From NCBI GenBank assembly GCA_008632985.1, contig QPGO01000094.1, positions 44,721-108,720 on the forward strand: 64,000 nucleotides of DNA, read 5' to 3'. The stretch comes from Psammoneis japonica (lineage: Eukaryota). Under the pieces are notes generated by a model. It saw only the letters and a list, made by a program, of their open reading frames with translations. It ran no database searches and was not told the DNA's origin. Positions 1 through 44,513 of this stretch are shown in pieces. A program made the position numbers and the translations under genes. Positions within the stretch are counted from its first letter, which is position 1. The number at the start of each line of letters is the position of its first letter.

Positions 1-65
1 ATCAAAGAAGATCAAACAGATTTCTGCAAGGCATCAAACTAAGACAAGACACTCGCTCAGTTAAG

Positions 66-2543
66 ATGTGCCAGTGTGATTTCCCAGATGCAGCAAAATT
101 CGGCAGTTCTCTCATGGACAGTGATGCACCATCCTCGCCTGAAAAAGAGTTGTGTTGCAAGCTAGCTCTTGCTTTGTTCACATCATGTCGGACTGCCTCA
201 GACGTGCGACTGTTCGATCAAACCTGCTTACAATCATTCCGTCAAGCGGTGGAGAGAGAAATCGTCACTGAAGAAAATCTGAAATTCTTGCAAAATCTGC
301 AAGATGCAAAATCTAATTGTCTGCGATTAAAAAGCACATCAGATTTTCTTAAACGCACCACCCGTGAGCACACATCGGACGACAATGAATTTAGCACAAG
401 GTGCGAAAGCGACACCAAAGACGACATCGGAATGGCTTTGCAAGGACAAATGCTTGATGCTCTTCTAGATGAATTGGTGAACCATGAACACGAAGACGGG
501 ATAGAAGCGAATGATGAAGCAGCCGTGCCCACGAATTTAAGTGGCAAACAAACCAGACAGAAGGGAAGTCACCTTGCAGGACATCAGCACTTGGCACGCA
601 TGTGCATGACTTCTTCAGATCAAAACACTGTCATCAATTCGGTCCCTGTCGTAGAAACAATGGAGCCACCAGAAATTGAGGTTAATGAAGAAGACAATGA
701 AAACAGCATGCAAGCAGATGAAGAACCTGCACCTCAAATTAGGAAACGAGACACAGTTTGAGCATTGCTGACCAAGACTGGATGCATTCGACAATCTTTC
801 CAAGACATGACTAATTTGGAAGAAGCCGTTGATGTCCTTGAAGCTAACGGCTCAGCCAAAAGCTCAGTTGATTGGTCAAAAAAAGCCAAGCTAGACCCAC
901 ATCAAAGTCGTGCTTTTGAAGTCATGGCAGGAACTTTCATTTTGACGCACTGCAAAGACGCTCTGGGAGAACAAGCAAGTGGCAATGTAAGAGGAGGAAT
1001 TAGACACGAATTTAACAAAGAGTGCAGGAGATTAGCCAAGTTAGTTGAAGTGCGAGAACGAAGAGGCACACAGTTGGTTTGTTTCTTGCATGGAGCAGGA
1101 GGAAGTGGCAAATCCACTGTTGTCGATCTCATTGTTTTGTGCGCAAGAGAATGTTGCTCTTTAATTGAACGACCATTCACTGCACAAACAATTGCCGTCA
1201 CTGCCATGACCGGAGTTGCAGCGACAATTCTGAAAGGAGACACCATTCACAGAGTTGCCCATCCAAACAGGAAAAAAGAAATGACAGAAACACAAATGGA
1301 AAGCTGGAGTGACACTCGTCTGCTGATCATCGACGAAATGTCATTTGCTTGCAGAAGAGATTTAGAAAAATTACATGCTGATCTATCTGTCGTGAAATCC
1401 AATTTAGACAGGCCTCATGGGGGTGCAAACACAGTGTTTGCAGGGGACCTGAGACAACTCGAGCCAGTTGGACACGGAATGCACCCTCTGTGCAAGGAGA
1501 CCTGTGCCGAATTCCAGGAATGGGTGAACTGCTGTGTCCAGTTGCATGGGATGCACAGATTCAGTGAGGATCCAGAATGGGGCAGTTTGCTAAAACGATT
1601 TAGAGATGGCGAAGCGACTCTCGAAGATGTCGACAAAATCAATGAAAGAGTGGCAAGAAAGGGTCAACAACTGCCAGAGAACATCAAATGTGCATCACAC
1701 AGAAACAAAGAAAGAGACTCCATCAACACAGCCTTGTTTGAGGAAAGGACCAAGAGACTGCACCAAAGAGATGGAGAAGTCTTGGACTCTCTAGCCATTT
1801 TCAGTGACGATTTACAAGTGCGTGACGGAGCAAGACAGTGCAGGCCTTTCCCGGTGCACAAAACATTCTGGAAAAACTGTGGAGAGAGCGATGTGGAAAT
1901 GCAATCTGGCAGGCTTGATCCAGTGTTACGAACATGCAAGGGATGTAGAGTTATGATCCCGCACAACGAAAATGTGGCAAATGGCATTGCGAACGGAACA
2001 CAAGCAACTGCAGCAAAAGTCGTGCTGAAACCAGGAGAACATTCATCGCAAGTGGTCTTGGACTGTGGAACATCCATTCGAGGTGTCACAGCATCCCAGG
2101 TGGATCATGTAGAACTCAAGCACAGCAACAAAAGCATCGGTCCACCCACCTTTTCGCTCAAGCCTGAGTCTTCCACTTTCAAAGCCTGTTTAAAGGACCC
2201 AACCCAACAGATGACAGCTGAGGAAAAAGAGAAACACATGCTCGGACTGAAAGCAACCCAATTGCCATTCACAACAAACAATGCGACTGCAGGACACAAG
2301 CTTCAAGGAAGCGGTGTCGACAATGTGTTTGTGCACAGCTGGAGCCACACACAAAACTGGGCATGTGTCATGCTCTCCAGGGTTAAGACCAGAAATGGTC
2401 TGCATCTTCGGCAACCGCTGAAGAGAGATTTAAGTCTACACAGACTGCCGGACGGGTGTAACGCCCTGCTCCGGTTGATGGAAGGAAGAAGTGTCACATG
2501 CTTCACCAACGAACAGTGTGATGACATTTTGCAGTCCAATTGA
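66..2543 (+). pseudogene. PIF1-family (SF1B) DNA helicase, mutationally damaged
   Basis: ORFs 66-761 and 765-2543 share a frame and are split by one TGA (759-761, plausibly CGA->TGA). Motifs: Walker A GAGGSGKS, TAMTGVAA, GDTIH, Walker B LLIIDEMS, GDLRQLEPV, HKLQG and VMLSRV. No Tyr in 823 translated residues. Confidence 0.88.
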
Positions 2544-2607
2544 CAAACAGAACATTTTGATGCTGCACATGGGAATTGTTTCTACATTTTGGAAAATGTT
2601 CCAGGCT

Positions 2608-2640
2608 TTGTGTCGGGCTTGCAGGCGTGCCCGGCAACAA
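2608..2640 (+). other. Imperfect GC-rich hairpin, candidate Helitron 3' terminal palindrome
   Basis: ttgtgtcgggc...gcccggcaacaa arms with one G-T pair and one bulge. A canonical CTRR end is not found at the usual spacing. Confidence 0.45.
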
Positions 2641-2649
2641 CCGATAGAA

Positions 2650-3330
2650 AACAAAGGGTCTAATCTAATAAATCGGTGTTAGTACATTATTACAATGATA
2701 GACACACTCAGCAACCAGTGATGCACAACGTTAGGACAGTTCTCTTATCATCTACCATAGAACGATCACACCAGAATTATCAAAAAGGGGAAACCCACGT
2801 CTCTTCTTATAATATATACATACACGAATACGAAAATTAAATCGCCATTTTTTGATATAATATTAAAACATTAATATAGAATTACGTCGCACATTAATTA
2901 ATTGCGAACCCATCATTTAAGCGTGCGAATTTTTCAAAAATGATTGGTGGCAAGTAAAGATCAAAGCTCTAAAATTTGATGCTCGCGCGCATGGCAATCC
3001 AAACCAGCCCGGGTTCCACACCTCCTCACTTCGTGTCCAGAGTTCCTACCATAAAGGAGGAACCAATTACTTAGCTTGCGGAACCTCTATTTCGTGGATA
3101 TTAACGGATTACTTAGATTTTAAACTTATTCATGTATAAAGTTCTATTACGTAAATGTCATCTTAGAATTGATTATTCGTATAATCATGCGATGCCCCTA
3201 CAGTGTGTTTGGTTGATCTTTTCTCACACATGTGTTAGATCTAGATTATTTTACTGTACGTGAATTTGACGGCTTGCTTTGAGTGATGGATTTCTTCAGA
3301 CCGATCTTAGGGTTACGAGATCAAGGCAAG
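2650..3330. other. AT-rich non-coding island retaining TpA and CpG
   Basis: Rich in tata, taat and tacg words (e.g. tataatatatacatacacgaatacg). No ORFs. Lies between two TpA-depleted blocks. Confidence 0.7.
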
Positions 3331-6300
3331 ATGCTCTCTGCTCTAGAGCTGCTCTCTGCTGTAGAGCTGGCTAGAGCCAGAGTTAGCAGCAGAGAGTGGC
3401 ACTGTCTTTCAGAAGGTCGTGACAAAGCACCGTGGGCCTCAGTTGTTTGTTCAACCCCACAGGGCCGTTGTCAGCAAAGGGTGGAAACTGCGCACATGTT
3501 GATGCACTGGCATTGCTGGCCACCACCTCCAGAGTTGTTGGATCACTTGGCAGCACGTGCTGCTCTGGCACAAGCCATTTTTCTTTGTTTGGCACAAGCT
3601 GCACCTGGGTTCTCCAAAAAAGCATTGGGAGTCTTTGGTCGCTGGGTGCTGACTGGACATTTGTGTGATCTCCATCAACCTCCAAAGCTGCCTTGTTGGC
3701 GATGTGGGCTTTCACATTTGCTTCATCAGCACTGCTGCGGGAGCATTTTTCATGTGTGAGCTGAAAAGTTGAGATTGGTGTTTCCAATGACTGACATTGC
3801 AGCTGACCTTGCTGGCCCATCAAAAAAACAATGGACCATTGGAGAGTGCTTGGTGCACATGTGTGCACATGGTCTTGTCAGCTCAAAGCTGAAGTGGAGA
3901 AAGAATGCTGGGTGCCATGCTCTCAGACAATTGGCACCAGCCTGAGCTTGCAAGTCAAAGATCAAAGAGCATGAGCTGCCATGGTGGGTTAGCTGGGGTC
4001 AGGTGTGGCCCTGATTTAAAAAGCTCACATGGCAGACAAGTCTTTAAAAATGAAGTGGTGTTTGCCATTGGTGCCTCCACAGGAAAAGCAACCCCCAGCA
4101 GAGGCAAATTCTTTGTGTGGCTCAGGCAGCTTCTTCTCTTTTGAGTGCTCTTTCAAGGCAGCAGGGCTGCACAGCACATGTGTGGCCAGCCATGACAAGA
4201 AAAAACTCTGCCAACCAACTGCGCAACACATTTCATCTAGCTGCCAATGCATGTTTTCCAACAACCACATCAGAGATTGTGGTGCTCCTCAGAGAAAGCT
4301 TTCCTGTCATCTGCAACCCACCACTTCCAAAGCAAGCTTCTCATGCCAGGTTGTGTGCTTCCAAAGCCAATGATGGCTGACTTTTTGTCTGAATTTGGGG
4401 ACATGACACTCACACTGCCAAAATCACTGCCAAAAGACAAAAGAACTTTGCAAGCATTTTCAAAGTTTGCATCAATGTTGCTTTCAGCTGCCAAGAATTT
4501 GGCTGTGATTTGCTTTCACATCTGGCCATGCTCTGTGTGCAGTGCAGCACAAACCAAGCAAGCAAAGCAGCACTGACACAGTGGCCTGCTCACAATGTTT
4601 TCAATGGATGCTGTTGGTGTGGATTGTGCTGTCTTGTGCTTCCACACATGTGATCATTGGTCTTCTGCTGCAGACAAGATGGCGGCACTTGTGCTCAACA
4701 AGTTTGCCAACCTCAACAAGGGAGGTCTAGATCCAGGCAAATGCCTTCAGTGCAGATTTGTGAAGGACATTTGCTGGTGTGCACTTAACCTCTGAACCTG
4801 ACAGAGTGGTTGTGTTGGCACTAATTTCTTCAACAACATTGGCTCAATCTCTGTCATGCCATCCCATTTCAAGCTCTCAGATGTGGTGTTCAGCCTCATG
4901 CATGAGAACAATTTTTTGCTGCATGGCACACTTTTGGCAAACAGAGGCGCTCAGCCATGCATGTGCTTGTGGCTCCTGGGGTCTTCCAAGCTGCTGCTGC
5001 TCAGTTGTGTGGGACCGGATGCCAACCTTCTGGGTGCACTGCAACCCCAGATGGTCAGGCTTTCACTTTGTGAGCTGTGAAGTGCACATGCTTTTTGGCA
5101 ACTTGTTGGCTGATGTTCCCTGTGCTGTCTCCACCTGTTTTGATGCTGCTTTTCTTGAGAGAGCTGGGCTCATCATTGAGAGTTGTGATGAGCTGGACAA
5201 TGCTCAACAAATGCTTCACTCAGAAGAGCCCAAACACAAGCTTGCAAGCCCAGAGTGATTGAGACAGGGCCCATTGCAATTTGCTTTGTTGGTGGTCAAA
5301 AAGTGAAAATCACACCATGAGCCAGTTTGGTCGCCTCTGTTGCTCAACTTGCCTCCATGCAGCACATGTGGTTTGTGCTCCACTCCACCTTTTTGAACCA
5401 GCTGATTCTGTTTGCCAAACCCAGCCAGCACAAGAAAAACTCTCCAGCTGATTCATGATGTTCTTGATGCTGTTGGCCCAAGATTTGGCAAAGTCTTTTG
5501 GACAAAGTGCACACCTCACTCTGCCAAAAATTCAGCTCAATGCACTTGACAGGGTGCACTGGGAGTTCTTTGCTGCATTCTTGGAGTGGCCTCTGCAGCT
5601 CTGCAGCTGTTTGCTTGATGTGCCCAACTGCAGCATCTGTGACACACATGCTTTGAGACTCCTGGCTCTGTCAAGCCCAGCTTCAACAAACAGTGGTGTT
5701 CAGCAGAGAATGTGTTCATTTGAGTGACATGTCAAATCAGGCCAGCAGCTTCCAAGCATGCCCTCAACCACCCTCTCTTGTTGGCCTTGTCTTCTCAGCA
5801 CAACACAACAACCAGCTGTGGTGCCAGAATCTTTTCTCTTGATGCAGCAGGTCGTGAACTTGAGTGGGCTTTTGCAGATCGTCATGGAAGACAGCAATGC
5901 CAAAAACAGTGTCACAAATGTTGTGATTTGTTCCACTGAATGGCCAACTCTTGCTGCAAGAGCAAACAATTGTTTTTGTGCTGTGCTCTGCTCTGCACAA
6001 AACTTTTGGTCATTGTGTTTCCCCAGCAAGTGTTCCCAGAAGAAGAGAAGAGTGGCAGAACAGCTCAGCTTCTTGATCCTGCCCTGCCTCTTGACTGAAA
6101 AAAAGAAGGTGCATGGGTGCATCATGTCACGCTTGTCATTTGCCAGCTCTGGCACAATGCACACTTCCCAGTGCACCCATTTCAAACAACAGATCTTTTG
6201 AAAAATGCAGTTTGTCCAGTGCTTGAGAGGCTCTCTGGACAACCCCTTGTGCATTTTTTGGCAAAGCTTTGACATTGCAGCTTGCTGTGAGATGTGTGTG

Positions 6301-7179
6301 TGCTCCCTTGCTGTGCTGACAGAATCTTGTTGGCACTTGCAGCACCCTTGTGTTTGTTCTTCAAATGCATCAACTGGCCAGTTGAGCAAGATCACTCTGA
6401 AGCTCTTCCTCTGCAACAGGATGGTGTCTCACTGTGAACTGCTTTCAAACACAGAAGTCAGATCCATCAAGTGTGTCACAAGCTCTTTCTTGGATGCATT
6501 GCAGCAGTGAGCAAGCAACTTGAGATGGGTGTGCCAAAAGTGAGTGGTGCCCATGCCCACCACTGGCAGAGCACACTCTGCAAGAACAGCTGAGCAGCAG
6601 CAACCTCTGGCAGAATGCACTCTACAAGCCCAGCTGAGCAGCAGCAGCAGCAGCTGTTCTCACAAGCACAGAAAATGAGAAGCAACAAAAGCATGCTTGC
6701 TTGTGTGAAGCTTTTTGTCACCCAAGTGCTCTCAGGCCAAGCAGACTCTGCCATCCCCCACCTTTGAAACAAGAATGCAGGCACCAGCTTGCTTGGACCC
6801 TGGTGAGCAATTTTGACAATCTGGGTGATTTTGAATTTTTTGCTTCCACAACCCAACAGAGTTTTGTCAGAGAGTTGGGAGCCATTCCCTCCACTCCTCT
6901 GGGTGGCAGGTGGATGACTCACTCTCACCAGGTTGCACTTGACACTCCAGTGTCTGCCCCAATCTCTGCTGTCTTTGAACACAGACTTCAATCTCTCTGC
7001 CCTTTTGTGCAGGGAAGGGCATTGTTTGATGACCTGATTCTGTGTGCACCCAGAGAGATCCAGGGCACCACAAGAGTTTTGTCATGGCACTGGTGGCAGT
7101 GTGATGGATTTGTGACATCTTCCCAAAGAAACCTTTGGCTGAACCCTTGTGATGTGTGGAGCTGTTCAGGAACTTTGAC

Positions 7180-7490
7180 AGACCCAGACATGTTGAAGAA
7201 AAGATGTCATTGCTCCTGATGTGGAGGACGCGGCAACTCATTGAGTGCAAAGATGTGCCATCGCTGATCCCACCCATTTTGTTGTTCTCACTCTTTGGAG
7301 TGAATCATTTGGTTTGCATGATTGTTGAGTGGTGTCAAGAGGCACCTGATGTTTTGGCAGTTGTTGATTTTCCATTAATTCCCAGGCAAACCACAGCCAC
7401 AGCAGACTGCCAAGACAAGTGCAACCAGTTGCTCAGGAGAGGACCTCAAGGAAGGGATTCCCTTTACAAGGCATTGCCTTGCTGATTCAA
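7180..7490 (+). repeat. Dispersed repeat, copy 1 (copy 2 at ~12760-13080)
   Basis: Shared blocks include ttgaagaaaag, tgttctcactct-ttggagtgaatcatttggtt, gaggcacctg and gttgctcaggaga. Confidence 0.8.
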
Positions 7491-10400
7491 CATTCACACC
7501 AGAGAGTCATGGGTGCCAAGTTTGGTGCTCATCTGCTGGAAGACTGCTGACAACACCAAGATGTCAGAATGCCTGCACAATGAGTGGCAGAGGAGGTGGC
7601 AGATCAAGCTGTTGAGGCCAAGGATGTGGTCCCAGCAGAGGAGATGGAAGTCACAGGTTGCAACCACAAGGGTGACATGTCTTGTGCCAAGTGGTTCAAG
7701 AAGACCAGCAAGAAACTGGAGATTGAGAGGCAGAGCCATGCACAGATGTGAGAGGCAGAAAAGACAATGACCCATCAGTGGACAGCAACAACACATGAGT
7801 GTTGACACCAAAAAATCTGACAGATCAACCTGTTCCAGCCAAAGCAGAAGAAGCACTGCATGACCACCAAGAGAACAGAGGGGAGCATGAATGACCAAGC
7901 CAACACAGACATTGATTCCAAGGAGATTGTCCTTGACAATGGCTCTGGTGCCCTTGGCATGGCAGCAAGCTGGAAACTGGTGCACAATGTGTGACCAGTG
8001 AGGATCAAGATTGACCCATCAACCAATGCCCACACCCCAGATGAAGCCTGAAACAATGCCAGGATGGAGAGACATTGAGCTTGGGTCAGATGATGTGATG
8101 GCCAGTGACCTCAATTTAAAGGATGTGAAGAGCAAGCACTGCATGACTTGAGATGACGGAATTGCAGATGAGTTCCAACTGTTGGGCAAGAAAACTGGGG
8201 ACAAAAGCTGCAGTGTTCAAAGTTGACAACATTGGGCTGCACATGTTTGCACCAAGTTGAAAATTCTTCAACTGTGCCAAAGAGCTGCAAGAGCAAGAAG
8301 AGCACACGAGCATGCTGTTGAAGGACAAGAGGAGAGCCACCACCAAAAAGGAGCACAAGGACACATCCAGAGTGATCGTTCCCACTGCAGAACAAAACAC
8401 CAAGGGCTGCTCTAAGAGAAAGCAGCCAATGCCAAGAAAGCTTTCAGACTGCAGTGTGAGAGATTTTAAACTGTCATTTTCATCAAACCAGGTGAAGAAT
8501 CTGACCATTGCACCTGAAGACATTGACAGAATGGTTGGCCATGTGGGGACCACAGACAGACACACTAAAAGAAAGACCAAGCCTGCACACCCTGCCCATG
8601 AGAGAAATGCTCTGCATTGATGTCATGGAAGCATGTGGAGTCAAGACATTGTGTGCAACAGACAAGACAAGCAAGCACCAATCAAACATGAAGCCAAACA
8701 CCAAGAACTGCACCAATGCACACAAGGCATTGGACGTGGTGATCCTGCAACAGCGCATGACACCAACACATTTAAGATCAACTTCATCAAGAACAACCTT
8801 GAGTTCAAGGATGTGGTGTTGGCGGCCATTGTTGATGGCATGGACCCAGAGCCAATGGTCCATGAATGCCAACCACCATGTTCCTGAAGTGGAGAGGAGC
8901 ATCCAAACTGTTGAAGAGCAAACTCAGGCACCCGTGCACTGTTTGCCACACAAGACAACACTTGCAGCCCACACACTGTTGTGCAACAAAGGAACCTTGT
9001 TCACAACAAACATTTTGAATTCTCCTTTGGAAAATTTGTCCCATCCCATGCTGAGCCCAACCCATCAAACACTGTGGGTGCACATGGCATTAACTGCATC
9101 CACCTGCAACCACACTGCAACACACCAAAGGGCAGACACTGCACCAGATGAACTTGCACATGGGCAAGCTGCTCAATCCTTGCAGGTGTGCCACAATCCC
9201 CGCCCCAACCAACACGCGTGTGCATGTGTGTGTGTGTTTGAAAAAATTGCCATTGCCAAGGACATTGAAGAGCTCAAATGTGCAGGTGAATGTGGGGATG
9301 ACCTGCGTGATGCTGGTTGGACTGCAGGAGTGGACCACAAAGAAAGCAATGCCAAAAGTGACAATGAATGCAGAGAAAATGGTGATGAAACTAGAAGTGC
9401 AACAACCAATGACAAAAATTGTGAAGAAGAAGAAGAAGAAGAAGAAACTGAAGACTCTGGCAATGCATGCGAAGAAGCTCAAGACATCCCAGGCAGCAGA
9501 TGAAAGATCCAGCCCAGCTCAGCATCACAAGGATGATGAAGACTTTGATGAGCAAGATGAAGAACACAAAGAAGAGCAAGAAGAATACAAAAATGCATCC
9601 CATGATGGGAAAACAAACAAGCAGAACAATGCAAAGCAAAACAAACCAGAAGCAGAAGATCTTGTGCAGTGGTGGCACACCACCAGAAACACAAGACAAT
9701 GCAAAGAAAACCAAAAGCATGATTTGCAGGAGTGGCAGATGCCAAAAGAGAGAGACAAAGACAGTGTGAGCTAGAGTGCTGCCATCATTTGTGAACCAAT
9801 GTGAGTCCTAACCTTGAGAATGACATGGAGTGCAACACAGAAGCAGGGGTGGCAATGGCACAGTTCATGTGCAAGATCAATGACTGAGCACAGTCATGAA
9901 AGAGCATTTCCTTTGCCCAACAACAGCTGCCACATGAGGGTCTTAGAGGTTTTGGTCAACAAGGATGTGATGCCTCAGAAAAGGAGATTAGACAGCTCCA
10001 CAACCCAACAGAGCATGCTTTGCACCCACATCAGTTAAAGAAATGTCTCCGACAGAGAGGTTGAGGGCCATGGTTGCCTTGATGTTCCCAGTGGAGAAGC
10101 AAGGCAGTTGTGCAAAAGGATTGGTGGTTTGCAGTGGGAAACCAACCAGGGAATGGCTGGACAAAGACAAGTCAGCCAGTCTGATGGCATCACTGGAAGG
10201 AGTTGTGATGGCAGCCATGTCATTGACTGTGAAGAAGGGCATGGCATTGTGAGTGCAGACATGCCAAACATGTTCACTTGGATGCAGAGTGGGCATTGAC
10301 TCCAACCCATGTGGACCACATGTGGTCAGGAGAAGAGGAAGCAAGTCTTCTGCATCAAGGCATTGGAGCAACACACGGGATGCTTGTGGCAGCCCCGCCA

Positions 10401-11350
10401 TGGCACAAACAATTCCGCAAAGACTTGAAGAAGATTGGGTTTGAGTTCAACCCATGCAATCCTTGCATCACCAGTTGCACAGCAAATGGCAGCACAACAT
10501 CCAATTTGTGTGGATGACCTGCTGTTGAGCCACAAGAACACCCCAAGGTCAATGACCAATTCCTGAGCTGGCTCAACAAGACAAATGGGAGCTGCAGTGA
10601 AGTCATTGCTTGCCACTTGAGGGAAGAGGCATGACTGTCTGGGATGACCCCAGATTTCAGTGAGAAAAGCAAGGTGAAGATTGACATGACTGAATGTGCA
10701 CAGAAGGCAGTGTGCACAGAAGACAATCAACCAGCTCCCAGAGAAAATTAAGAGCACCAATGCTGCCATGACACCAGTGGCAGAGAACCCACTTGAGACA
10801 GGCTGTGCTGGATTGCCGACCAGCAGAGAACAGACATTCCATGCATGGGTGGCCAAAGGACTGTTCCTGTCTGAGAAAGGCTGCATCATGGACATGCACC
10901 CTGCAGCCACAGCATTGCGCATGAGAGTTGGACAACCCGCCAACAGGAGGGGCTGGGAGAAGCCAGTCCATTTCATCAAGCATCTGAACCAGACAAGGAA
11001 CAAAGCTGCTGCACTGAGCACAAAAGACATCCGTGTCATCACAAGTGGTGCACAGATGCATCATTCATGGTGCACCCGGGTTTAAAGAGCCACACCGGAG
11101 GTGCAACAATGATGGGAAACAGTGCGATGTCCAAGTGCCAGAAGCCAAATGCCCAAAGCAGCACTGAGGCCAACCCAGTTGGTGTTGAAGGTGCAATGGC
11201 CATGATCCTGTGGATCAAGTCATTCATGAAAAAACAGGGTCATCCAATCAACAGGAATGTCTGGCATCAGGACAACAAGAGCGCCACTCTGCTGGAGACA
11301 AATGGGTGCAAGAGCACAGGAAAACAATGACCAACAAGCCACTGCTGGGA
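7490..11350 (+). mobile_element. Degenerate Ty1/Copia (CoDi-like) retrotransposon remnant
   Basis: Motifs occur in Copia order: protease-like IVLDNGS (~7925-7950), integrase-like HVPEVERSIQTV (~8877-8915), RT VDDLLLSH (~10510-10533), and RNase H KSHTGG...SSTEA...QDNKSATLLETNG (11085-11310). Many stops and frameshifts. Confidence 0.75.
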
Positions 11351-12759
11351 ATGAAGTTTGTGACATCAGACAAGAATTCTGACACATGTGGGTGAAAGAA
11401 CTCTGTGACCCAGAAGATGTGTTGAGCTGTGTGGCTGAAGCAATCACAGTTGTTCATGTTGCCAGAACCATGATGTCAATTGCTGTTTCCACTGATCCTG
11501 ATGAAGATGATGTGATGCATCTCAAAGACCGGCTTGAGCTGAATGACACATTTGCATGACAGTGGCAGAGGAGCTGTTGGGACAGGTTCACAAAGTTGGA
11601 TGAACTGTTGCTGCTGAGAGAAAAAGAGATCAAGACTTCCAGAATGCACTGGAAGAACACAACGAATGGACACAATGTTGCAGTGAGAAACTGACGACAG
11701 ACCCCTGCATCCGTTGAGAGGCAATCAACACGCATCTGTTGACAATCAAACTCATGGAAGACTGGGCTGCAAGGAAGACTGGCACCCTCTAAGAGGACTT
11801 TGAGAAGAACAAGAAAAAATTTGAATGAACGTGGCATGAGCTGTGGACAGCAAGGCATGAGACAATGGGGCGCATGCACAACAAGTTGAGGCAATGCAGA
11901 TGGAACAAGTGATTTTGTGCCAGCACATGTTTGCCAGCCACTGCTGCGCCAATGATCTCCTCACTTGGCAATGGACAAGAAATGACAGCCATTGTCAAAC
12001 ACCATGCAAGAGTGGCACACAAGACTGAGGAACATTGGCAGATCCTTGGAACATGGGTTTGGGGACAGGGACACTCATGTCACAAGCTGGGATTTTGGCT
12101 GGGTGACTTGCACCTGAGAGAATGCACCGTGGACTCAGTCATGGGATCAATGGGCAACAAATTCTGATTTGCATTTAACACCAACAATGTGCTGTGTGTT
12201 GAATTTGGGGTGCCCCAATGTGGGTTGGACCACTGTGGAACATGCAGACCTCCAAGTGCACCACCAATTGGTCTCTGGAAGCCAAGAAGTGGTGATTCAG
12301 GTTGGTGCAAGGCAACAATGGAGTTGTCTTTGATGCTTTTGAAGTTAGCATGATTGTTCAAGCTTGCAGTTGTTGAAGCAAAGCCCCACAAGGAATGGCC
12401 TTGCCACAACCCAGAGTTCTTTGAATTGAGCTGCAGAATCATCAACAACTGGCTGATGGAAATGATTGGCAACACGCATCCACACAGCATTGCTGTGCAA
12501 GAGAAGATTCAATGAGCTCACACCAAGCATTTCATGGACAGGGTCATGACTGCATTTGATGATTTGCTCAGCCCACCACACATTTGCAGACCAAGTGGAC
12601 ATGACTGTGGAGGCATCAATGTGGCCAACACATTGAATGGACATGTTGTTAACATCCCACTGGGCAGTGCAGATCCAGAACATCCGGGTGAAGTTGGGCA
12701 TGGACAGATCATTGGTGCAAGTGGTGGGAGAGTGTTGGAACAAGTTGTGAGACAGGAAC

Positions 12760-13080
12760 TTTGAGACCCGGATGTCTTGAAGAAAAGAATTTTGTTGCTC
12801 CTGATGCAGAGGACATGGTGACTCATCAAGTGCAATGATGTGCTGTCACCAAATCCCATCTGTTTTGCTGTTCTCACTCTCTTTGGAGTGAATCATTTGG
12901 TTCACATGATTGTCAAGTGGCATCAAAAGGAGGCACCTGCAATCTTGGCAGTCATCATTGAGTTTCCATTGACACCTGGGCAAACACCACCGCCGACACA
13001 GACCACCAACGCAAGTGCAGCGAGTTGCTCAGGAGACCTCACAGGAGGATTCTCTTTGGGAGACATTGACTTGCTGGTTC
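12760..13080 (+). repeat. Dispersed repeat, copy 2 (copy 1 at ~7180-7490)
   Basis: Same colinear blocks as copy 1. Many differences are TG-versus-CA swaps. Confidence 0.8.
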
Positions 13081-13839
13081 AGCAGGAGCTCCACACTGGC
13101 AGATTGCACAGATGCTGTGTTTGGAAATCTCCTTTGTCAATGCAGAGCCAAAACCACCCTGTTGAGTGCACTTTCCTTTCTGCTGTGTCAGCAGTTGGTG
13201 CTTTTGCTTGCTGGAATTTTGTGGCATTGCGCCCAAGCTTGGCACCGCTCTTGTTTGCAACAACATGGCCCCACGGTCAATGTGATTCTGAATTTAAGTC
13301 CTTTCCTCCTGCCCTGGAGCTTTTTGTTGGTCAAGATGGAGAGAGCAACTTCCAAAAAGAGGCATCATTCAGCAAACATGGCATCTCCTGATGAGTGGGA
13401 AGTGGTTGACAAAGTTTGTCATGTGCAGTCAGTCATTGCTCAGCGCAAAGTTCAAAGACAGCCAATCTGTTTCCCAGCCCCCCCCACGCAGCGGAGTGGG
13501 AATTCTGCCCCTCTTGTGGGGACCGCATGGGTGGGTTGAAGTGACGAAATAATGTGCTCTTCGAGTTAAAGAGCAAGCACTGGCAGAGTAAGAAGGTCTT
13601 GGCATTTCCCGCCTTTTCGCGATCCGCACTCCAAGTGCCGCAACTCTTGAGAAGCATTGTTCCCTCGTCTTGCGCACAATACTGAGATGAGATCTAATGG
13701 CTCTTCAGTTCTGATTCTCCGTCGAGACAGAAGAAGTTTGACGTGATACAAGCTCTCTAGGGCCCTAACGATGATTCATACGTAGCTTTCGGGAGCAACT
13801 TGATCTGAAAAGTTTTTGATACAATAAACATTACATTAC

Positions 13840-14250
13840 TTAAGCATCCTCTTCTGCTCTGAGCTTTGCGTTTGCATTAGTCACACGAATGGCAAGCTGT
13901 TCGGCACGTTCGATAATTTCCTTGCGAACACGAGAAGACACGGAGTGTGCAACGGTGGCAGCGTAGGTACGGTTGTGGAGCATGAGCATTTCCAAGTCCG
14001 CAACGTTGCTAACAACGACACTCTTGAAACCGTTGGGGTGAATATTACGCGTGGCCTTGTCGGAACCGTATCCAATACTTGGCATGGGAATAGCTCCCTT
14101 GAAACGACGACGGACACGTCCGTCAATACCCTTGGGCTTGCGCCATGATGAATTACGGATGCGAATAAACTGGTCCGACTGGTGACGTGCGAACTTCTTC
14201 GTTCGCTTCTTCACAATGGTCTTTTTGTTGATGGGTGTAGGTCCCGCCAT
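13840..14250 (-). CDS. RPL32: 60S ribosomal protein L32 (eL32)
   Basis: [15 protein letters not shown]...[17 protein letters not shown]...PSIGYGS signature. ATG at 14250 gives 136 aa. Confidence 0.97.
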
Positions 14251-14898
14251 TTTTGCAAGCACTGAAAATAAGCACAACGAAAAAAGAAGTAAATTTGTGA
14301 GACAGCATGTCGGAAGGTGCTGATTGAGTCGAATGAGACAACGATGGGAGATGGCGAAAGTTATCGGAATCGAATGCAGATTGCGAATCATGTCACTTCT
14401 TCCAAGATGGCGATATCATACATGCGTTTCGGCATTTCTTTGTTTGTAAAGCTAGACGAGACTGGCACAGGCGGTTTCGCCATGGTCGCTTACCTTTCAA
14501 TGCCGTCGTGCGGTGTCGAAGTATGCTGAATCGAAGAGACAGTTCTACGTAGATATCGTACTGGATCGTACGTTAAGTTTTTCAGTAAGAAAGTAAGCAG
14601 TATTACGAGCTCCAATCGACTAGATTGACTCATAAGAAAACTCGTATGGTCTGACTGCTGTCCGCAGAGTTTCCACACAGGCCACAAAAAACAAAAAAGG
14701 CGCGGAGTTCGATTGATTTTACTTGATCAACGCAGATAAATCAATGCATGATTCTCATAAAGATCAACAACAGCAAGACAACAGCGCAAAAAGCACCATC
14801 ACCTTCGAACTTCGAATGGAGCGAGCTCATGCCATTCAACCCTTTCTCTTTTGCAACGTTATCATTACAAGACAAAGACTGACTAGCTATTTTAACAG

Positions 14899-16980
14899 AT
14901 GTGTGGTATTGTTGGGCTGCTTTTGGCAGACGAGAAGGCGTTTGTGAGTTTACGCGTTCGACCGCTCAATTCTTTTCGCCAGGTTCAGGTAGCAGCATGT
15001 TCTCATTTCTCATTGCCTCCCTGTTTCTGTTTCTCTTTTGCTGCAGGTCAATCAAATGCTATTTGACGGTTTGACTGTGCTTCAGCACCGCGGTCAGGAT
15101 GCAGCGGGAATCGTAACTGCCGAGCGTCGTCGTCTTCATCTTCGCAAAGATAATGGTTTGGTAAAGGACGTCTTTCACACACATCACATGGTGGATTTGC
15201 GAGGCAACGTAGGGCTCGGACACGTTCGGTATCCTACCGCAGGTTCTTCTTCTGTGCAGAAGCTCAACCTCTGTACACGAACTATCCTTATGGTATTTGT
15301 GTTGCGCACAATGGGAATCTTACAAACACGGAGGAGCTTTCCGCCGTTATGCTTCAGAAGAAAAGGGTACGTGCATCTTGATGTGCCTCTTACATGTAGC
15401 TTTTTTATACGATCCGGTTTCTCATGTACTTGTATTGTTTGCAACTCTGATAGAGACATGTCAATACAGATTCGGATTCCGAATTGTTACTAAACACATT
15501 CGCTGACCACCTAACGAAAGCCGACCCAGACGACATGGTGGAGGCGATTTTTGCTGCAGTGGCTGGCGTCATGCAGCAGTGCAAGGGTGGATATGCCGGC
15601 ATGTACCTAATCAATGGTGTCGGTTTGGTTGGGTTTCGCGATCCGAACGGCATTCGCCCCATGGTCTTTGGCACCCGCAAGCCTCCCGGATCAAGGCAGG
15701 TTCAGCACAATGGCGTGCCTATGACGCCGTCGAGGCTCAAGAACTCTGAGCAACGCCTCGACTATGTCATGGCCAGCGAATCCGTCGCAATCGACACTCT
15801 TGGATTCGATCTTGTGCGAGACATTAACGCTGGTGAAGCAATTTTTGTGGACATGAACACTGGCAAGTGCCACTCTCGCGTCGTTCACCCCGGTGCTGTC
15901 AAGTCTCCCTGCATTTTCGAATACGTTTATTTTGCGAGACCGGATTCCATTATGGATGGTGTGTCCGTCTACGAGACTCGTCTCAAGATGGGAGAAAAGC
16001 TGGCAGACAAAATCATGAAGCGGTTTCCGGATCATGGTATCGACGTGGTGATTCCCATTCCAGATACCTCTCGAACCTCAGCACTCCAGGCTGCTTACAA
16101 GTTGAATCGGCCCTTTCGGGAGGGTTTCATCAAGAATCGCTACATTGCGCGCACCTTTATCATGCCCGGACAGGAAACTCGTAGAAAGAGCGTCAGACTC
16201 AAGCTCAATACCATAAAGAGTGAGTTTGCGGGTAGAAACGTTCTTCTTGTCGACGATTCTGTCGTGCGAGGAACAACCGCGAGCGAAATTGTTGAAATGG
16301 CCCGTGATGCTGGAGCCCGCAAGGTCTTCTTCACGAGCGCCGCACCACCCATTAGATATCCAAACATTTATGGGATCGATATTCCCACGAGACAAGAACT
16401 TATTGCCTTTGAAAGAACGGAAGAGGAGATTGCCAAGCAGATTGGATGCGACTGGATTATGTAAGTAGTTGAATTGTGTGATGCTGCAGCTTCTCCTGAG
16501 TACAAGGAGGTCACTTACACTTTTTACCGTACTATGTTTGTCCATCTCAGATACCAGGACCTTAGTGATCTTGAGGATTCGGTGAAATCATGTGCACCTG
16601 AAGGTCGTCCCTTGACAGGTAGGCGACGCCAACGCTCTGTCCGTGTGTCTATTATATGTTCAGATGCTTCACAGTCTGGCTTCTACTAACACCAAACTTG
16701 CTTTGTATATCGTTTCGAAGTTTTCGATACCAGTTGCTTTAGCGGGAAGTATGTGACAGGTGAAGAAATTGAAGATTCGTACTTCAACAAGCTGCATGAT
16801 CTGAGAAACGACACAGCCCAAGAGAAAAAGAGGCTGTCGACAGGCATGGGCGGAAATGACCCTCTTCCTCAACAAAGCAATAATGGTTGCGAGTCCATGT
16901 TGAATGACACTCGCTCTTCTCTGATCAATGATGAGGGTTGTGAATCTCTCGCAAATGATGTCTCTGATGGAGCTCACTAG
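14899..16980 (+). CDS. PPAT: Amidophosphoribosyltransferase (PurF/ADE4), multi-exon
   Basis: N-terminal [59 protein letters not shown] and YGIDIP. GT-AG introns near 14944-15047, 15368-15453, 16461-16550 and 16619-16720. Apparent 1-nt frameshift at ~15253. Confidence 0.95.
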
Positions 16981-17291
16981 GTACCAAAGACCTTCCCATT
17001 TTTGTAGAACGCCTTATGTAGTACCTTTTTAATCATTCCTCCGAAATGGCTGGTACATGTTGCAGGTACCTTCGAGTTAATAAGTAGAGGGATGTGGAGG
17101 AGGATTAGCTACTGTACACACTTCTTGGAAAGCGAGAATGCCGTTTTGGGAACAAACCATGGTGTGTTTGCAGGCGGCTGTGCTCCAGGCTCCAGAGCAC
17201 AAAATTAATCTAATCACATCTATCACATCATCACACATCAGTATTTTCATGTCACTTTCAAGACTTGTGTCAAGGGAGTGGATCGTTCACC

Positions 17292-18852
17292 ATGAGATTA
17301 CGGTTTCGACACTATGTTCCTATTTCGATTGTCGCTTGCGCTATTTTCGCATGCTTAGGGGTAGGATCCACTGCCTTCCAACCATCGGTTTCTGCTTCTA
17401 GATCGAGTGCTGTTCATCCTGGTCGAAATCCCCGATGCAAGCCGCAAGTCGCTCGGGTAGCTGGCAATCGCAAGGAGACATTGTTCAGTCTCGAAGGAGG
17501 AGGTAATGCGGAAGAAGGGGATGAGCCATCACGTGTATCCCAGTGTATGTCAAAGTTTCTCAGTTTTAGCAAGAAGAACTCATTCCTTATGGGTATGTTC
17601 GTTGCTGTATGGTTGGCGCGAGCTTTTCCTTGGGTACGTACTTTGTTTTGTGTTCAAGCGACGAAACTCTTTAAAAATTGTCTTTCAATCTAACGGACCA
17701 TTCTTCGTCGCCATACGTGTGTAATGTTGCGACAGCTGGGAAAAGACGGAGGTGTCACTCGTCCCGAGCTATTCATCGGAAAGTTTGGAGTCATGGGGAT
17801 CTTCCTTTTGTCAGGACTATCCCTCGAAGTTTCGGAGCTGAAGCAAGCGGCTGGTAACCTAAAACTCAATGCATCAGTGCAGCTGTTGACGTTTGGTGTG
17901 TGGCCTTTCTTGGTTGGACTGCCGCTGACCAAACTGTTAGCATCTTGCTCTTTGTTACCCCAAGTTTTGCTTGATGGACTGCTCATTTTGACTTGCCTTC
18001 CTACGACCGTGAACATGTGCATCCTGCTAACTTCTGCGGCCGGAGGCAGTGTACCTTCGGCATTATGTAATGCAGTCATTAGCAATCTCTTGGGGGTGTT
18101 CCTAACCCCATCTCTCATACTCTTTTTCTTCGGAACAAGCACTTCCCTCCCTTTCGTCGATATGGTGCTAAAGCTCTGCAACAAGGTCCTTCTTCCCGTT
18201 GGTAAGCGTGCTTCACTGCCCAAATATATTTCAAATTGTAGCTTTTCTCAATTCTTGTTCTTCTTTGCTGCTTACTATACAGGCATTGGGCAGGTTCTGA
18301 GGCAGACCGGAGCAAAGGAGCTCAGTAATAGACACTCCAAGCTATTGAAGAAGTTTCAAGAGGTATTGTTGAGATATGTTCTATCGTATTCCCCTCTCTG
18401 CATCCCGACATTGAGCTTCTTCTTATTAGCCACGTTTCCTTTGTTTTGTGCTATTGGTGGGTGGCAATTAGCTCATTCTCCTTGGAATTGTTTGGAACGC
18501 GTTTTGTAACGCCTTCTCGCAGGGACTTGGTTTGGAGCTTAGGCATGCCTTGGCACTGTTGGCAATGATTCCTGCACTTCATTTCTCCGCGCTACTTGGG
18601 ACAATGAAGCTCTTTTCACAACCATTTTGGGGGTTTTCACGCGGGGAAGTTGTTGCGGCTATGTTTACATCATCTCAAAAGACACTAGCTTTTGGACTTC
18701 CCCTGGTGAATACAATTTTTGAGGGAAACCCAAATCTTGCCACTTACTGCGCCCCGATCATGATTGTTCACCCGCTGCAGCTTATAATTGGGTCGCTCCT
18801 TTTGCCAAGAATAAGGAAGTACACAGAGGGCGAATCAGAACGCAGAAATTGA
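17292..18852 (+). CDS. Sodium/bile acid symporter family (SBF-like/BASS4-like) transporter, probably plastid-targeted, multi-exon
   Basis: [41 protein letters not shown] and HPLQL motifs. The hydrophobic signal ends in STA-FQP, resembling the ASAFAP cleavage motif. Confidence 0.88.
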
Positions 18853-18982
18853 CACGATGACATCTTGATCTGTCAATCAAGCAGCGCTAAGGGTCTGAGT
18901 GCAGAGAAGCTATAAAGTACAAACGAAGCCCCGATACCACTGCAAGCAAAACTATTGCGATCTTATCCGCTACTAGCTCTAG

Positions 18983-22537: not shown

Positions 22538-23917
22538 CTACAGAAACACGTATTCGTCTTCTTCACTCGACTCCGCCGCCTCCTCTCCCGCAGCAAATGA
22601 ATCAATGCATGTATCAATACCATGTTCTCCGTTTGACGGGAGCATCATGTCGGTCATTGCAGAAGACACGTCCGCTGCGTAATCAGGAACAACGTCCATC
22701 ACGGAAAACAGTTCTGGTATGCTCTTTTGAGATGCAAACGCTTTGCTCCGTTGACGCATGGTATTGCACAGATGCTCAAAGTCATCTCGATCCTGACAAT
22801 ACAGCCCAATCGACAAGCTTGGGTCAACCCTATTGAACTGTACTGCTTCGGGATTCGTGCAATGTACAGAACGCACATACTCATCGGTCAGAGCCAAGAC
22901 TTTGCTACCATTTCGCACCTTTCGCAACTGCGGAGCATTTTGTACAGTGTGGGGATCAAGCCCATACAGTCTGGAACCGTCAGACGAGGCACCGCAAAAC
23001 CACCTTGCCGCTCGCGGTCTTCCTCCGAGAACACCAACCGATTGAGGCAATGAAAAAAAGTGAGCCAAAGACGGTGCGTATGTTTGGTTAAAGGACTTGA
23101 GTCCCAATCGAAGAGGGACAAGAATAAGAAGAGCAGTGTCCCATGGAATTTTCTCTTCTTCCTTTTCAACATAGTCGGGATCAAGCGGATGTGATGGTAG
23201 CTCGTGTCCTGCATCTGGTTCAGGAATAATCGTGCGTCCGTCGCGAGTCATTAGCTTTTCCACTTCATCTTTAAAAATAGTACCCTGTGATGCTATATGC
23301 ACACGAAACATTGGTCGTTTCAGGCAATCATCAGATGCATTGAGTTGAATCTTGTTGGCCTGTTGTTCATGAAGCAGACACAAGTCTCTCATTACATAAC
23401 AAGCAGTCCCAGGCCCATACCATTCACCAGGCAGAGTTTCGTACTTTGACAAACCAGTGGCAACCATGTTGTGAAGCGAGTAACGGCACTCATCATTGGA
23501 AGGGAAATCCGCAAACCAAGTTAATATTTTTCGGAAAAATGGGTCCGCCTTTTGCTGAGCAATCGTTCTTGGAGGTCGCCATCCTCGTCCTTTAAAGTGC
23601 ACACGCAGAGTTTGGGCCAACATCATTTGAGCAGACCGTAGCATACAACCCCATCCAGCATCAGTAGAGATTCCATAAGGTACAATCGTAGGAAAATCGC
23701 ATCGATAAGTGAACCAGAAAAGAGAGCGCTCGTCGAGTCTTCTAGCTTCGTCGTCCCGTTGCGGCAGATAGGTTCTTCCGAGCAAGTGTACAGCACACAA
23801 ATCCTTCTCTTTTGCGGACTGTATTTGAATCATTGAAGCTGTAGCGACTGAAGTGAGGGACGAGAGGAACGGATTTGGGGTTTCAATTTGCTCGAGATCA
23901 TGTTTCTCATCCGTCAT
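22538..23917 (-). CDS. ATG4: Autophagy cysteine protease ATG4 (peptidase C54)
   Basis: WFTYR, TDAGWGCMLRSAQMMLAQ, PGEWYGP, PQSVGVLGGRP, LDPH catalytic motif, and a C-terminal LIR-like EDEYVFL. Start codon uncertain. Confidence 0.93.
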   Translation of the reverse strand: MTDEKHDLEQIETPNPFLSSLTSVATASMIQIQSAKEKDLCAVHLLGRTYLPQRDDEARRLDERSLFWFTYRCDFPTIVPYGISTDAGWGCMLRSAQMMLAQTLRVHFKGRGWRPPRTIAQQKADPFFRKILTWFADFPSNDECRYSLHNMVATGLSKYETLPGEWYGPGTACYVMRDLCLLHEQQANKIQLNASDDCLKRPMFRVHIASQGTIFKDEVEKLMTRDGRTIIPEPDAGHELPSHPLDPDYVEKEEEKIPWDTALLILVPLRLGLKSFNQTYAPSLAHFFSLPQSVGVLGGRPRAARWFCGASSDGSRLYGLDPHTVQNAPQLRKVRNGSKVLALTDEYVRSVHCTNPEAVQFNRVDPSLSIGLYCQDRDDFEHLCNTMRQRSKAFASQKSIPELFSVMDVVPDYAADVSSAMTDMMLPSNGEHGIDTCIDSFAAGEEAAESSEEDEYVFL

Positions 23918-44490: not shown

Positions 44491-44513
44491 CTGACAGTTC
44501 TCCTTCTCTTTTC

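Follow-up and report, generated by a model that had tools for sequence, protein, structure and literature searches.

A tyrosine-free Helitron copy points to TpA-directed hypermutation of inserted mobile elements in a diatom genome

We found that the 64,000-nucleotide stretch of DNA analyzed here (the window) opens on a Helitron fragment that has lost all of its tyrosine codons. Very probably, this loss is the work of a process that targets mobile elements after insertion and changes TpA to TpG or CpA (A:T→G:C) while sparing YTAR sites. As part of this best explanation, positions 1–2644 represent the 3′ portion of a Helitron copy, now dead, within the nuclear genome of a diatom (by sequence search, the host genes within the window are diatom-like). 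A protein-atlas query with the ATG4 gene gave animal clusters, which were uninformative on the taxon. The dead copy would have been struck on its DNA after insertion; this process and CpG→TpG/CpA decay would jointly have erased neighboring LTR elements, and the former would already have begun on a younger copia insertion. Within the window, the signature is sharply confined to mobile elements (Table 1).

Table 1. Helitron, LTR-element, and composition features of the window
Feature	Position	Strand	Remarks
PIF1-type helicase part (C-terminal) of Helitron RepHel, open frame	3–2543	+	Truncated at 5′ window edge
Sole in-frame stop, TGA	759–761	+	
TpA-hypermutated Helitron block	1–~2644		14 non-YTAR TA in 2643 nt; CpG roughly halved
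TA-rich spacer of ordinary composition, not hypermutated	2645–3362		Contig depth high
10.2-kb block with TpA and CpG nearly absent	3363–13549		30 TA (27 YTAR), 61 CG
Ty1/copia-type LTR retrotransposon	37541–44815	+	gag_pre-integrs, RVT_2; LTRs 37541–37830 and 44526–44815
Hypermutated fragment of related copia element	61850–64000	−	8 TA (7 YTAR), 11 CG in 2150 nt; exits window

The helicase frame spans 846 codons and is interrupted by a single TGA. The two ORFs of the initial annotation, 66–761 (231 aa) and 765–2543 (592 aa), are both present and share their frame with 3–761. Since a paralogous contig (depth 289) has C at position 759 and thus reads CGA, the stop is a CpG transition in the window copy. 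Pfam matches on the frame are PIF1 (2.1e-15) and AAA_30 (1.2e-12), and the homolog consensus extends over the LQNLQD stretch of the first ORF too. The best longer homologs are 48–49% identical (E ~1e-175). Full-length homologs combine Helitron_like_N, PIF1, and DUF6570, and 76 of the 93 longer homologs (counted by hand from the tabulated matches) carry Helitron_like_N (PF14214) plus PIF1, which bears out the Helitron identity first proposed. The full-length homologs are Helitron RepHel proteins, and the window ORF is therefore the helicase half; the Rep half would fall upstream of the 5′ window edge, and only the helicase half is read here. Two copies of CTAA-T (2659–2663 and 2664–2668) lie directly beyond the edge of the mutated block, and a candidate Helitron 3′ hairpin upstream of them folds no better than shuffled sequences (z = −1.13). 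By comparison with contigs assembled from a public run (exact 31-letter words), the Helitron is multicopy: Contig depth is 361–528 over positions 1–2001, against ~57 in flanking single-copy DNA, and there are divergent paralogous contigs.

The initial annotation had reported both ORFs to be free of tyrosine, and there is indeed no TAY codon in the frame of 3–2543 (frame 0, none; frame 1, six; frame 2, one). Among 25 aligned homologs the mean Tyr content is 2.9% (range 1.6%–3.9%), a rate at which the chance of zero Tyr in 823 residues is ~3e-11. There are 15 columns in which at least 60% of these homologs carry Tyr; there, the window protein shows Cys nine times, His five times, Leu once, and Tyr never; 14 of the 15 Tyr columns thus agree with the suggested changes TAY→TGY and TAY→CAY. 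The motifs in which Cys and His had been noticed in place of an expected Tyr read YAxEYC, xYGG, RYATYFN, and WSYVTNWVYVMLSRV in the consensus. Intact homologs have Tyr, not Cys or His, at these columns, and the claim survives that check. Invariant tyrosines are among those lost (columns 126, 534, and 585, with Tyr in every homolog that has a residue there), while the window copy retains other conserved columns (Gly, 25 of 25; His, seven of seven; Trp, seven of eight). A change spanning two codons had been proposed as well, and at a Thr-Thr of the consensus the DNA does read act gca, that is, T-A-C became T-G-C.

Compared with the homolog consensus, the window copy has 115 differences, 28 of which are explained by TA-type single steps; in TA-normal Helitron loci, the corresponding figures are two of 21, three of 56, and four of 58. 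Since 81 of the 115 are of neither TA nor CG type, the window copy is also an ordinarily diverged lineage. Every Tyr codon (TAY) would be a target of the proposed process, with products, TGY (Cys) and CAY (His), that are never stops; all tyrosines could be gone with the frame still open because of this property of the products.

Tyr-poor relatives of this Helitron occur elsewhere. In a contig from an unrelated metagenome (L003), a complete RepHel ORF encodes 1878 aa with 0.1% Tyr, and there are eight TA in 5827 nt; the ORF is 47% identical to the window protein and has Helitron_like_N at residues 400–607. Tyr content is <1% in six of 323 fetched homologs; at the Tyr columns, the Cys/His pattern is clean in only one of them (P0023). 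This protein, from another record, is 98% identical to the L003 ORF and differs from it by Cys versus His or Tyr at Tyr columns. The other five Tyr-poor homologs are 31%–40% identical to the query and poorly aligned at the Tyr columns.

The depletion of TA is found at the level of DNA, beyond codons: It is even across all three codon frames and is also seen in the 3′ untranslated 100 nt. The helicase ORF has a rho of 0.22 for TA and 1.55 for TG+CA (ordinary DNA, 0.56 and 1.15). Over 2–2643, the density of non-YTAR TA is 0.17 times that in the window's ordinary DNA and the density of YTAR is 1.7 times (P = 4e-12, Fisher's test), and in the 10.2-kb block non-YTAR TA falls to 0.009 times the normal density. 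The block edges are sharp (2645, 3363, 13549, and 61850): From 2645 there is about one non-YTAR TA per 12 nt, and edge 61850 matches the end of copia homology at 61847. Ordinary DNA, with 3.6% TA, lies outside the blocks at 13.5–37.5 kb and 44.8–61.8 kb. Contigs of a further run (X2), with GT..AG joints, cover only 13341–20000 and have no bearing on the blocks either way. The highest contig depth is at 2002–3335 (915–1796, against ~57 in single-copy DNA), and since TA is normal from 2645 despite this depth, copy number alone does not direct the process, unless the depth has another source.

The younger copia element appears to record an early stage. Its LTRs differ at 10 of 290 positions, all of them TA→TG/CA: six single changes and two coupled sites with TG in one LTR and CA in the other. 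Of 16 inferred ancestral TA, the 5′ LTR has lost two and the 3′ LTR eight; all 14 CpG and every other position are unchanged. In the interior, RTA depletion is limited to the + strand (RTAR 7 vs. YTAY 70, P = 3.5e-14), an asymmetry that counts against our explanation, because a symmetric process on double-stranded DNA leaves a strand bias unexplained. The fragment at the 3′ end of the window is decayed: It has 70% identity to 38206–39177 (54%–66% by tblastn), and opposite 55 aligned copia CpG it has CG once, CA 19 times, and TG 17 times; of 12 aligned copia TA, it keeps two. The 10.2-kb block probably derives from at least one LTR element that has decayed. It contains LTR-like repeats at 7167–7398 and 12753–12994, with 44 differences in 230 aligned nucleotides, 13 of which are coupled TG↔CA pairs, and it has contig joints 7316→13062. 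Pfam found nothing credible in 37 standard-code ORFs of this region (3283–13536) or in six at 62166–63885 (two matches below cut-off, E ~0.009), nor did it in 21 frames where TGA was translated as X. When the copia and Helitron proteins of the window served as tblastn queries, the block again gave no match.

Copies of the same element have been changed differently. Helitron contigs of depth 228–380 have 40 listed differences from the window, 30 of which are coupled TG↔CA changes at 15 dinucleotides, and the remaining 10 are all at CG or TA steps. The paralogous contigs have TG where the window has CA, and CA where it has TG. Over the whole 20 kb compared, there are 149 transitions and 22 transversions. 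A control duplicate that is not a transposon, with 51 differences over 647 aligned nucleotides, shows an ordinary, mixed spectrum and no coupled pairs. Because the copia LTR pair, the LTR-like pair, and the paralogous contigs all differ in TG versus CA, each DNA copy was acted on after insertion. Chromosomal DNA had been named as the target in the initial annotation, on the argument that Helitrons have no RNA intermediate, and that claim stands on evidence that is more direct: The same dinucleotide is TG in one copy and CA in another, and the LTRs of a single insertion differ only at TA-derived sites. The TA-free blocks are not an assembly quirk of the record, as separately assembled contigs reproduce them with three to 13 differing letters per 0.8–2.7 kb, from a run that is probably of the same sample as the record's assembly and whose library type is not on record.

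The survival of TA depends on its flanks. Observed against expected numbers in the Helitron are zero versus ~31 for RTAY, 13 versus ~46 for RTAR and YTAY together, and 27 versus ~16 for YTAR. This order agrees with the number of T-A-Y targets that a site of each class offers, namely two, one, and zero. The outcomes inferred for the window copy and L003 (YTAY, 10 TG to five CA; RTAR, four CA to two TG) count against a strict single-strand T-A-Y rule, since that rule predicts only TG from YTAY and only CA from RTAR. The LTR pair adds two exceptions, one YTAR site (TTAG→TTGG) and one ATAA→ATGA. For the residual CG in the blocks, there is no clear flank context; in L003, the counts are CGA 31, CGC 29, CGG 29, and CGT 18.

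Could the changes have been made at the RNA or cDNA stage (by ADAR-like editing, APOBEC-like action on minus-strand cDNA, or reverse-transcriptase bias) and carried into the genome by copying? The pattern of the copia interior, where RTA is lost on the coding strand only, is exactly what would be expected if A in T-A-Y were deaminated on minus-strand cDNA, and cDNA-stage editing may be an additional layer for retroelements. As a full account it is very unlikely. The Helitron family transposes as DNA, yet this copy has both TG and CA outcomes (nine Cys, five His), an identical site is TG in one copy and CA in another, and the 10 TA sites that distinguish the two LTRs of a single insertion include outcomes from each strand. 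Moreover, TG and CA are interspersed as in ordinary DNA, with no strand-coordinated tracts (runs test, z from −2.0 to +1.4). Still less likely is a sequencing artifact, the misreading of TA and CG sites whose bases are heavily modified in silenced DNA. Misreading of modified TA on either strand would likewise give TG or CA in the consensus and never CG, and the sequencing platform is documented neither for the record nor for run X1. However, the contigs built from 31-letter words of the public run match the blocks over kilobases at a depth of ~57–67, the same state is seen in the contig of the unrelated metagenome and in the 98% identical protein of another record, and the published case, in the part of the preprint accessible, concerns new mutations in Illumina-sequenced lines (bioRxiv 10.64898/2026.01.13.699255).

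Least probable of all is selection, by which an element that stays functional would have purged TA motifs, either in evading a TA-directed nuclease or for expression. The frame of 846 codons with one stop and the uninterrupted 1878 codons of L003 are in keeping with it, but an open frame is expected anyway, as TA→TG/CA is unable to create a stop. The invariant tyrosines are lost, the choice of TG or CA varies between copies and LTRs, and TA loss is equal within and beyond the codons. The nearest rival concerns the base attacked: TET/JBP-type oxidation of T in TpA would yield 5-hydroxymethyl- or 5-formyluracil, which mispairs with G and gives T→C. Oxidized thymine does mispair with G, and such bases favor TpA in some protists. 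All of our results fit this equally, since A→G on one strand is T→C on the other, and the attacked base is thus not decidable from sequence. We nevertheless consider it improbable: The one paper found on this signature prefers, in its accessible part, adenine deamination, itself by inference.

An adenine deaminase that acts on DNA at 5′-T-A-Y-3′ on either strand, and that chromatin or small RNA guides to foreign DNA under silencing, could quite possibly be the agent of the mobile-element-targeted process. Adenine deamination would give hypoxanthine, which is read as G. The CpG loss would reflect the usual deamination that methylated cytosines undergo in silenced elements. No candidate enzyme gene lies within the window. 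The strand-asymmetric copia suggests that the same enzyme may also work on one exposed strand, either minus-strand cDNA or an intermediate of replication or transcription. A more speculative extension, which we hold to be somewhat unlikely, is a dedicated diatom defense enzyme that converts A to inosine at 5′-T-A-Y-3′ in transposons and integrated viruses and is shared with Rhizaria by descent or convergence.

Mutation-accumulation lines of Bigelowiella natans are reported to gain TpA→TpG/CpA mutations in integrated viral DNA at ~1000 times the rate seen elsewhere, in dividing clonal cultures and on a single-copy insert, and TpA-poor coding sequences are reported to be enriched for reverse-transcriptase and DDE transposase domains (bioRxiv 10.64898/2026.01.13.699255). 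As far as the accessible part of that preprint goes, the two cases agree in that changes are almost exclusively A→G/T→C, all at TpA and giving TpG or CpA, in the long-term depletion of TpA with enrichment of CpA and TpG, and in the limitation to foreign or mobile DNA; here, host DNA keeps an ordinary spectrum. They differ in the host (a chlorarachniophyte there, diatom-like here), in the TA content of ordinary DNA (6.0% and 3.6%, respectively), and in the targets, which are viral inserts there and almost saturated Helitron and LTR retrotransposons here. In addition, YTAR is spared here, whereas the same part of the preprint states no flank rule, and the process is here accompanied by CpG loss. 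The rate in B. natans was measured directly; the history here is inferred from sequence.

Other known systems share some of these features. Like fungal RIP, the process is a DNA-level transition hypermutation inside the boundaries of mobile or repeated DNA that treats each copy independently and makes elements unrecognizable to similarity searches. We rejected RIP itself, as its direction is opposite: RIP changes C:G→T:A, mostly CpA→TpA, so that TpA is its product and not, as here, the substrate of A:T→G:C changes, and it creates stop codons, which the present process cannot. RIP is also premeiotic and dependent on duplication, unlike the B. natans case as far as described. The CG→TG/CA changes in the old elements resemble the CpG decay of methylated transposons, which accounts only for the CpG part of the pattern and is slower than the TA process (in the young LTR pair, 10 TA changes vs. 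none at 14 CpG). ADAR, an animal family that acts on RNA, and APOBEC3, which acts on retroviral cDNA, likewise make deaminase-type, context-dependent clusters of transitions against selfish elements. They do so on RNA or single-stranded cDNA, on one strand, and before integration, whereas here a DNA transposon is affected, with interspersed outcomes and after integration. ADAR is reported, in the accessible part of the preprint, to prefer a 5′ U/T beside the edited A (bioRxiv 10.64898/2026.01.13.699255). ADAR-type hypermutation fixed by retrocopying was rejected, given both outcomes in a DNA transposon, LTR differences on both strands, and no tracts.

Literature searches on hypermutation of transposable elements in diatoms found no account of the signature in diatoms. 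For TpA-directed hypermutation of foreign DNA, there is one earlier report, the 2026 preprint on a chlorarachniophyte; the present case adds a new lineage, transposons as targets, and the T-A-Y flank preference. Such elements evade domain searches, as the 10-kb block without a Pfam match illustrates, and they keep long open frames that gene callers will report as proteins (1878 codons with 0.1% Tyr in one example). Both the transposons and the genes of such genomes are therefore annotated with distortion. The process is peculiar neither to one alga nor to viral inserts, and an environmental Helitron contig shows the signature too. The search for the enzyme is thereby widened to a group that includes genetically tractable species, and the preference for T-A-Y with sparing of YTAR offers a concrete specificity against which candidate enzymes and the 231 published new mutations of the B. 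natans lines can be tested. A naturally occurring enzyme able to introduce A:T→G:C changes into DNA would attract broad interest. If the proposed deaminase is real, it would be a natural DNA adenine editor and the adenine counterpart of RIP; if it also acts on one exposed strand, it would be a functional analog of APOBEC3 that works on adenine.

The Helitron copy at the start of the window lacks tyrosine altogether. There are no TAY codons in the frame 3-2543 and no Tyr in its two ORFs, as the initial annotation had stated. Among 25 aligned homologues Tyr makes up 1.6-3.9% of residues (mean, 2.9%), and at the mean rate the chance of finding none in 823 residues is ~3e-11. The claim that Cys and His stand in place of Tyr is likewise borne out: at the 15 columns with Tyr in at least 60% of homologues, the copy has nine Cys, five His, and one Leu. 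Among other conserved residues, Gly is retained at 25 of 25 columns, His at seven of seven, and Trp at seven of eight; Ile is retained at eight of 21 (seven Val, three Met, and one each of Thr, Ser, and Leu). We tested 355 conserved columns codon by codon; 240 are unchanged and 115 changed. The changes comprise 28 single TA-to-TG or TA-to-CA steps, six of CpG type, 16 other transitions, 27 transversions, and 38 that need more than one step. In three Helitron loci with normal TA, the corresponding TA-type steps are 2/21, 3/56, and 4/58. The copy is an ordinarily diverged family member that has, in addition, been specifically stripped of TA.

A protein search found 114 relatives of similar length, the best ~50% identical. 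Since the homologue consensus extends over the upstream ORF too (LQNxQD...), the two Helitron ORFs form one gene, their sole separator being a TGA at 759-761, the only stop in 846 codons. Position 759 is C in a paralogous contig (CGA), so this stop is a CpG transition. Of the 93 longer relatives, 76 by table count are ~1850-1920 residues long and carry Helitron_like_N ahead of PIF1, in most cases together with DUF6570. What the window contains is thus the helicase half of a RepHel gene from a Helitron; the Rep half lies beyond it. The closest protein-atlas cluster is labelled Bacillariophyta (phylum known for four of 87 members). Because TAY-to-TGY or -CAY changes give no stop and RTA-to-RCA changes only remove stops, the frame stays open, and its openness here is no sign of function.

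Coordinates of features in the window (R, purine; Y, pyrimidine)
Feature	Position	Strand	Remarks
Block (Helitron)	1-2644		41 TA, 27 YTAR; CpG about half of normal
Block	3363-13549		30 TA in 10 kb, 27 YTAR; 61 CG; non-YTAR TA 0.009x normal
Block (window end)	61850-64000		8 TA, 7 YTAR; 11 CG
ORF	3-761	+	open at window edge; same frame as 765-2543
ORF	765-2543	+	PIF1 (2.1e-15) and AAA_30 matches
LTR-like pair	7167-7398, 12753-12994
Skipped GT..AG segments, X2 contigs	17632-17735, 18200-18282, 18360-18470
ATG4 host gene	22538-23989	-
Methyltransferase-domain host gene	30486-32204	-
Direct duplicate	33461-34108, 57054-57763		dispersed, ~650 nt
copia LTRs	37541-37830, 44526-44815	+
copia interior	37831-44525	+
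Assembly gap in copia	41887-42806		920 N; ORFs listed across it not real
Tandem array	59112-59681		unit ~177 nt (two alternating ~90 nt sub-repeats); TA, CG ordinary

Ordinary DNA of the window has ~18 TA and ~30 CG per 500 nt, and the sharp departures from this composition form three blocks. The loss of Tyr is the effect of such a DNA-composition block rather than a codon effect. In the Helitron block, the density of non-YTAR TA is 0.17 times normal and that of YTAR 1.7 times (P = 4e-12, Fisher's test). Block edges are abrupt: at that of the Helitron block, the spacing of non-YTAR TA falls from ~190 nt (up to 2583) to ~12 nt (from 2645). Compared with the numbers expected from ordinary DNA, the survivors are 0 RTAY versus ~31, 13 RTAR and YTAY versus ~46, and 27 YTAR versus ~16. 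This is the pattern produced if the target is the A of 5'-T-A-Y-3' on either strand, the three groups then offering two, one, and no targets per site. We inferred ancestral context and outcome for the TA-type amino-acid changes of the window copy and of L003, a metagenome Helitron locus: YTAY gave 10 TG to five CA, RTAR four CA to two TG, and RTAY 16 TG to five CA, with two changes at YTAR. The direction of outcome fits a T-A-Y target, if not strictly; a pyrimidine precedes three of the five Tyr-to-His changes. TG and CA outcomes are interspersed, with no strand-coordinated tracts (runs test, z -2.0 to +1.4, as in ordinary DNA), and no clear flank rule was seen for residual CpG in the blocks.

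The second block has no recognisable protein domains in any frame, and its stops are nearly all TGA (61-112 per frame vs. 2-10 TAA or TAG). Its two LTR-like repeats are separated by 5.6 kb, and 7316 is joined to 13062 in contigs. The highest contig depth within window 1-20000 is at 2002-3335 (915-1796 vs. ~57 for single-copy DNA), where TA is ordinary, even high, from 2645 on; either a high-copy segment was spared hypermutation, or something else accounts for the depth.

The initial annotation had argued that the process acts on chromosomal DNA. Three independent comparisons support this, each placing the changes after insertion, copy by copy. The public sequencing run X1, probably made from the source sample, contains 73% of the words sampled from window 1-10000; its contigs were assembled separately and compared with window 1-20000. 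Contig depth over the Helitron is 361-528, versus ~57 for flanking single-copy DNA, and diverged paralogues are among the contigs. All compared contigs together show 149 transitions and 22 transversions. Among the best-supported 40 of the 176 window-contig differences, 30 are coupled pairs (15 sites), that is, TG in one copy and CA in the other at the same dinucleotide; each of the remaining 10 falls on a CG or TA step (eight CG vs. TG/CA, two TA vs. CA). A coupled pair means that the ancestor had TA (or CG) and that each copy changed separately.

The LTRs of one insertion are identical, or nearly so, when integrated. Those of the copia retrotransposon now differ at 10 of 290 positions, all TA-derived (three RTA to RCA, three TA to TG, and two sites TG vs. 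CA); neither any of 14 CpG nor any other base differs. Of 16 inferred ancestral TA, two changed in the 5' LTR and eight in the 3' LTR, and one TTAG-to-TTGG and one ATAA-to-ATGA change break the T-A-Y rule. The LTR-like pair of the second block has 44 differences in 230 aligned nucleotides, with 13 coupled pairs. As a control, a non-transposon duplicate (90-94% identical) shows 51 differences in 647 nt, of mixed types as in an ordinary spectrum, and no coupled pairs. The process thus hits each DNA copy after insertion.

The TA process outpaces CpG decay: in the young copia LTR pair, 10 TA changes stand against none at CpG. In the Helitron, ~83% of non-YTAR TA is gone but only about half of the CpG; from the old blocks both are gone. 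The block at the window end, itself decayed, is related to the copia but lies in reverse orientation (70% identity over 939 aligned nucleotides; protein, 54-66%); there, only one of 55 copia CpG is kept (19 CA, 17 TG) and two of 12 copia TA. In the copia interior, RTA is depleted on the coding strand only (RTAR 7 vs. YTAY 70, P = 3.5e-14; 388 vs. 416 in ordinary DNA), with TAY at normal level and no evident RCA excess. The first ORF has 13 RTA in 3877 nt over all three frames. An additional single-strand stage, in cDNA, transcription, or replication, may lie behind this asymmetry. Retained RTA cluster at 39923-40710. The 1292-codon open frame gave no integrase-core Pfam match, so the copia may be degraded as well.

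The same signature is found in environmental sequences. A helicase-alignment scan of metagenome contigs gave 31 loci, of which we measured 19, the 12 left unmeasured being weak or short matches only. L003 has eight TA in 5827 nt (rho 0.02; CG rho 0.30); two further loci are partly depleted (rho 0.28-0.39), and in the remaining 16, rho over the matched part is 0.45-0.79. One uninterrupted L003 frame (125-5761; 1878 codons) carries DUF6570, Helitron_like_N, and PIF1 with 0.1% Tyr, and gene callers would annotate it as an intact protein. It has only two Tyr, both outside the Helitron_like_N match (residues 400-607). A protein from another record, P0023, is 98% identical to this frame (471/480 residues) and has seven Cys, five His, two Phe, and one Tyr at the Tyr columns. 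There the two differ as His versus Tyr and His versus Cys, the copy-by-copy hallmark again. Tyr is <1% in six of 323 homologues; the five besides P0023 are distant.

One host gene of the window, probably coding for an RNA methyltransferase, matches an RMKL-like methyltransferase domain (UPF0020, 2.6e-11) and, weakly and below the cut-off, the N6_N4 DNA methylase family. Run X2, from the same sample as X1, is RNA-like over 13341-20000; its contigs skip segments of 81-109 nt with GT..AG ends, so host genes contain short spliceosomal introns.

Taken together, these data demonstrate that a TpA-specific transition process, with YTAR spared, affects integrated DNA independently in each copy, only within mobile elements, and at a rate far above that of background or CpG decay. 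The initial annotation was right overall in both its observation and its main inference. Editing of RNA or cDNA as the cause is contradicted by the copy, LTR, and strand results, and selection and sequencing artefact are likewise contradicted by the results of this analysis. The changes could be produced by an enzyme that would deaminate adenine within T-A-Y on either DNA strand and would be directed to foreign DNA that is silenced; CpG loss would follow more slowly from cytosine methylation. A route to T-to-C through thymine modification may operate instead of adenine deamination; the two look alike in sequence.

A precedent, the only relevant one that literature searches brought up, comes from mutation-accumulation lines of Bigelowiella natans. 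The main text of a preprint reports that, of 302 nuclear point mutations newly arisen in these lines, 231 lie in two regions of integrated viral DNA; nearly all are A to G or T to C, all of these on TpA, and the rate is ~6e-7 per site per generation (~1000 times background). Coding sequences poor in TpA show enrichment there for reverse-transcriptase and DDE domains, and the preprint proposes a DNA adenine deaminase resembling ADAT2 (bioRxiv 10.64898/2026.01.13.699255). That main text mentions neither a flank rule nor diatoms, and the TA it reports is 6.0%, versus 3.6% of dinucleotides in ordinary DNA of the window. The window is from a different species than B. natans: its host genes are diatom-like, and named relatives of ATG4 are only diatoms (Mayamaea, Epithemia, Fistulifera, Nitzschia, and Cylindrotheca; ~50% identity). 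Our finding is a clear second case of a phenomenon first described in 2026, now on transposons and in a distant lineage. It contributes further detail on the flank preference, the element-sharp boundaries, and the order relative to CpG decay.
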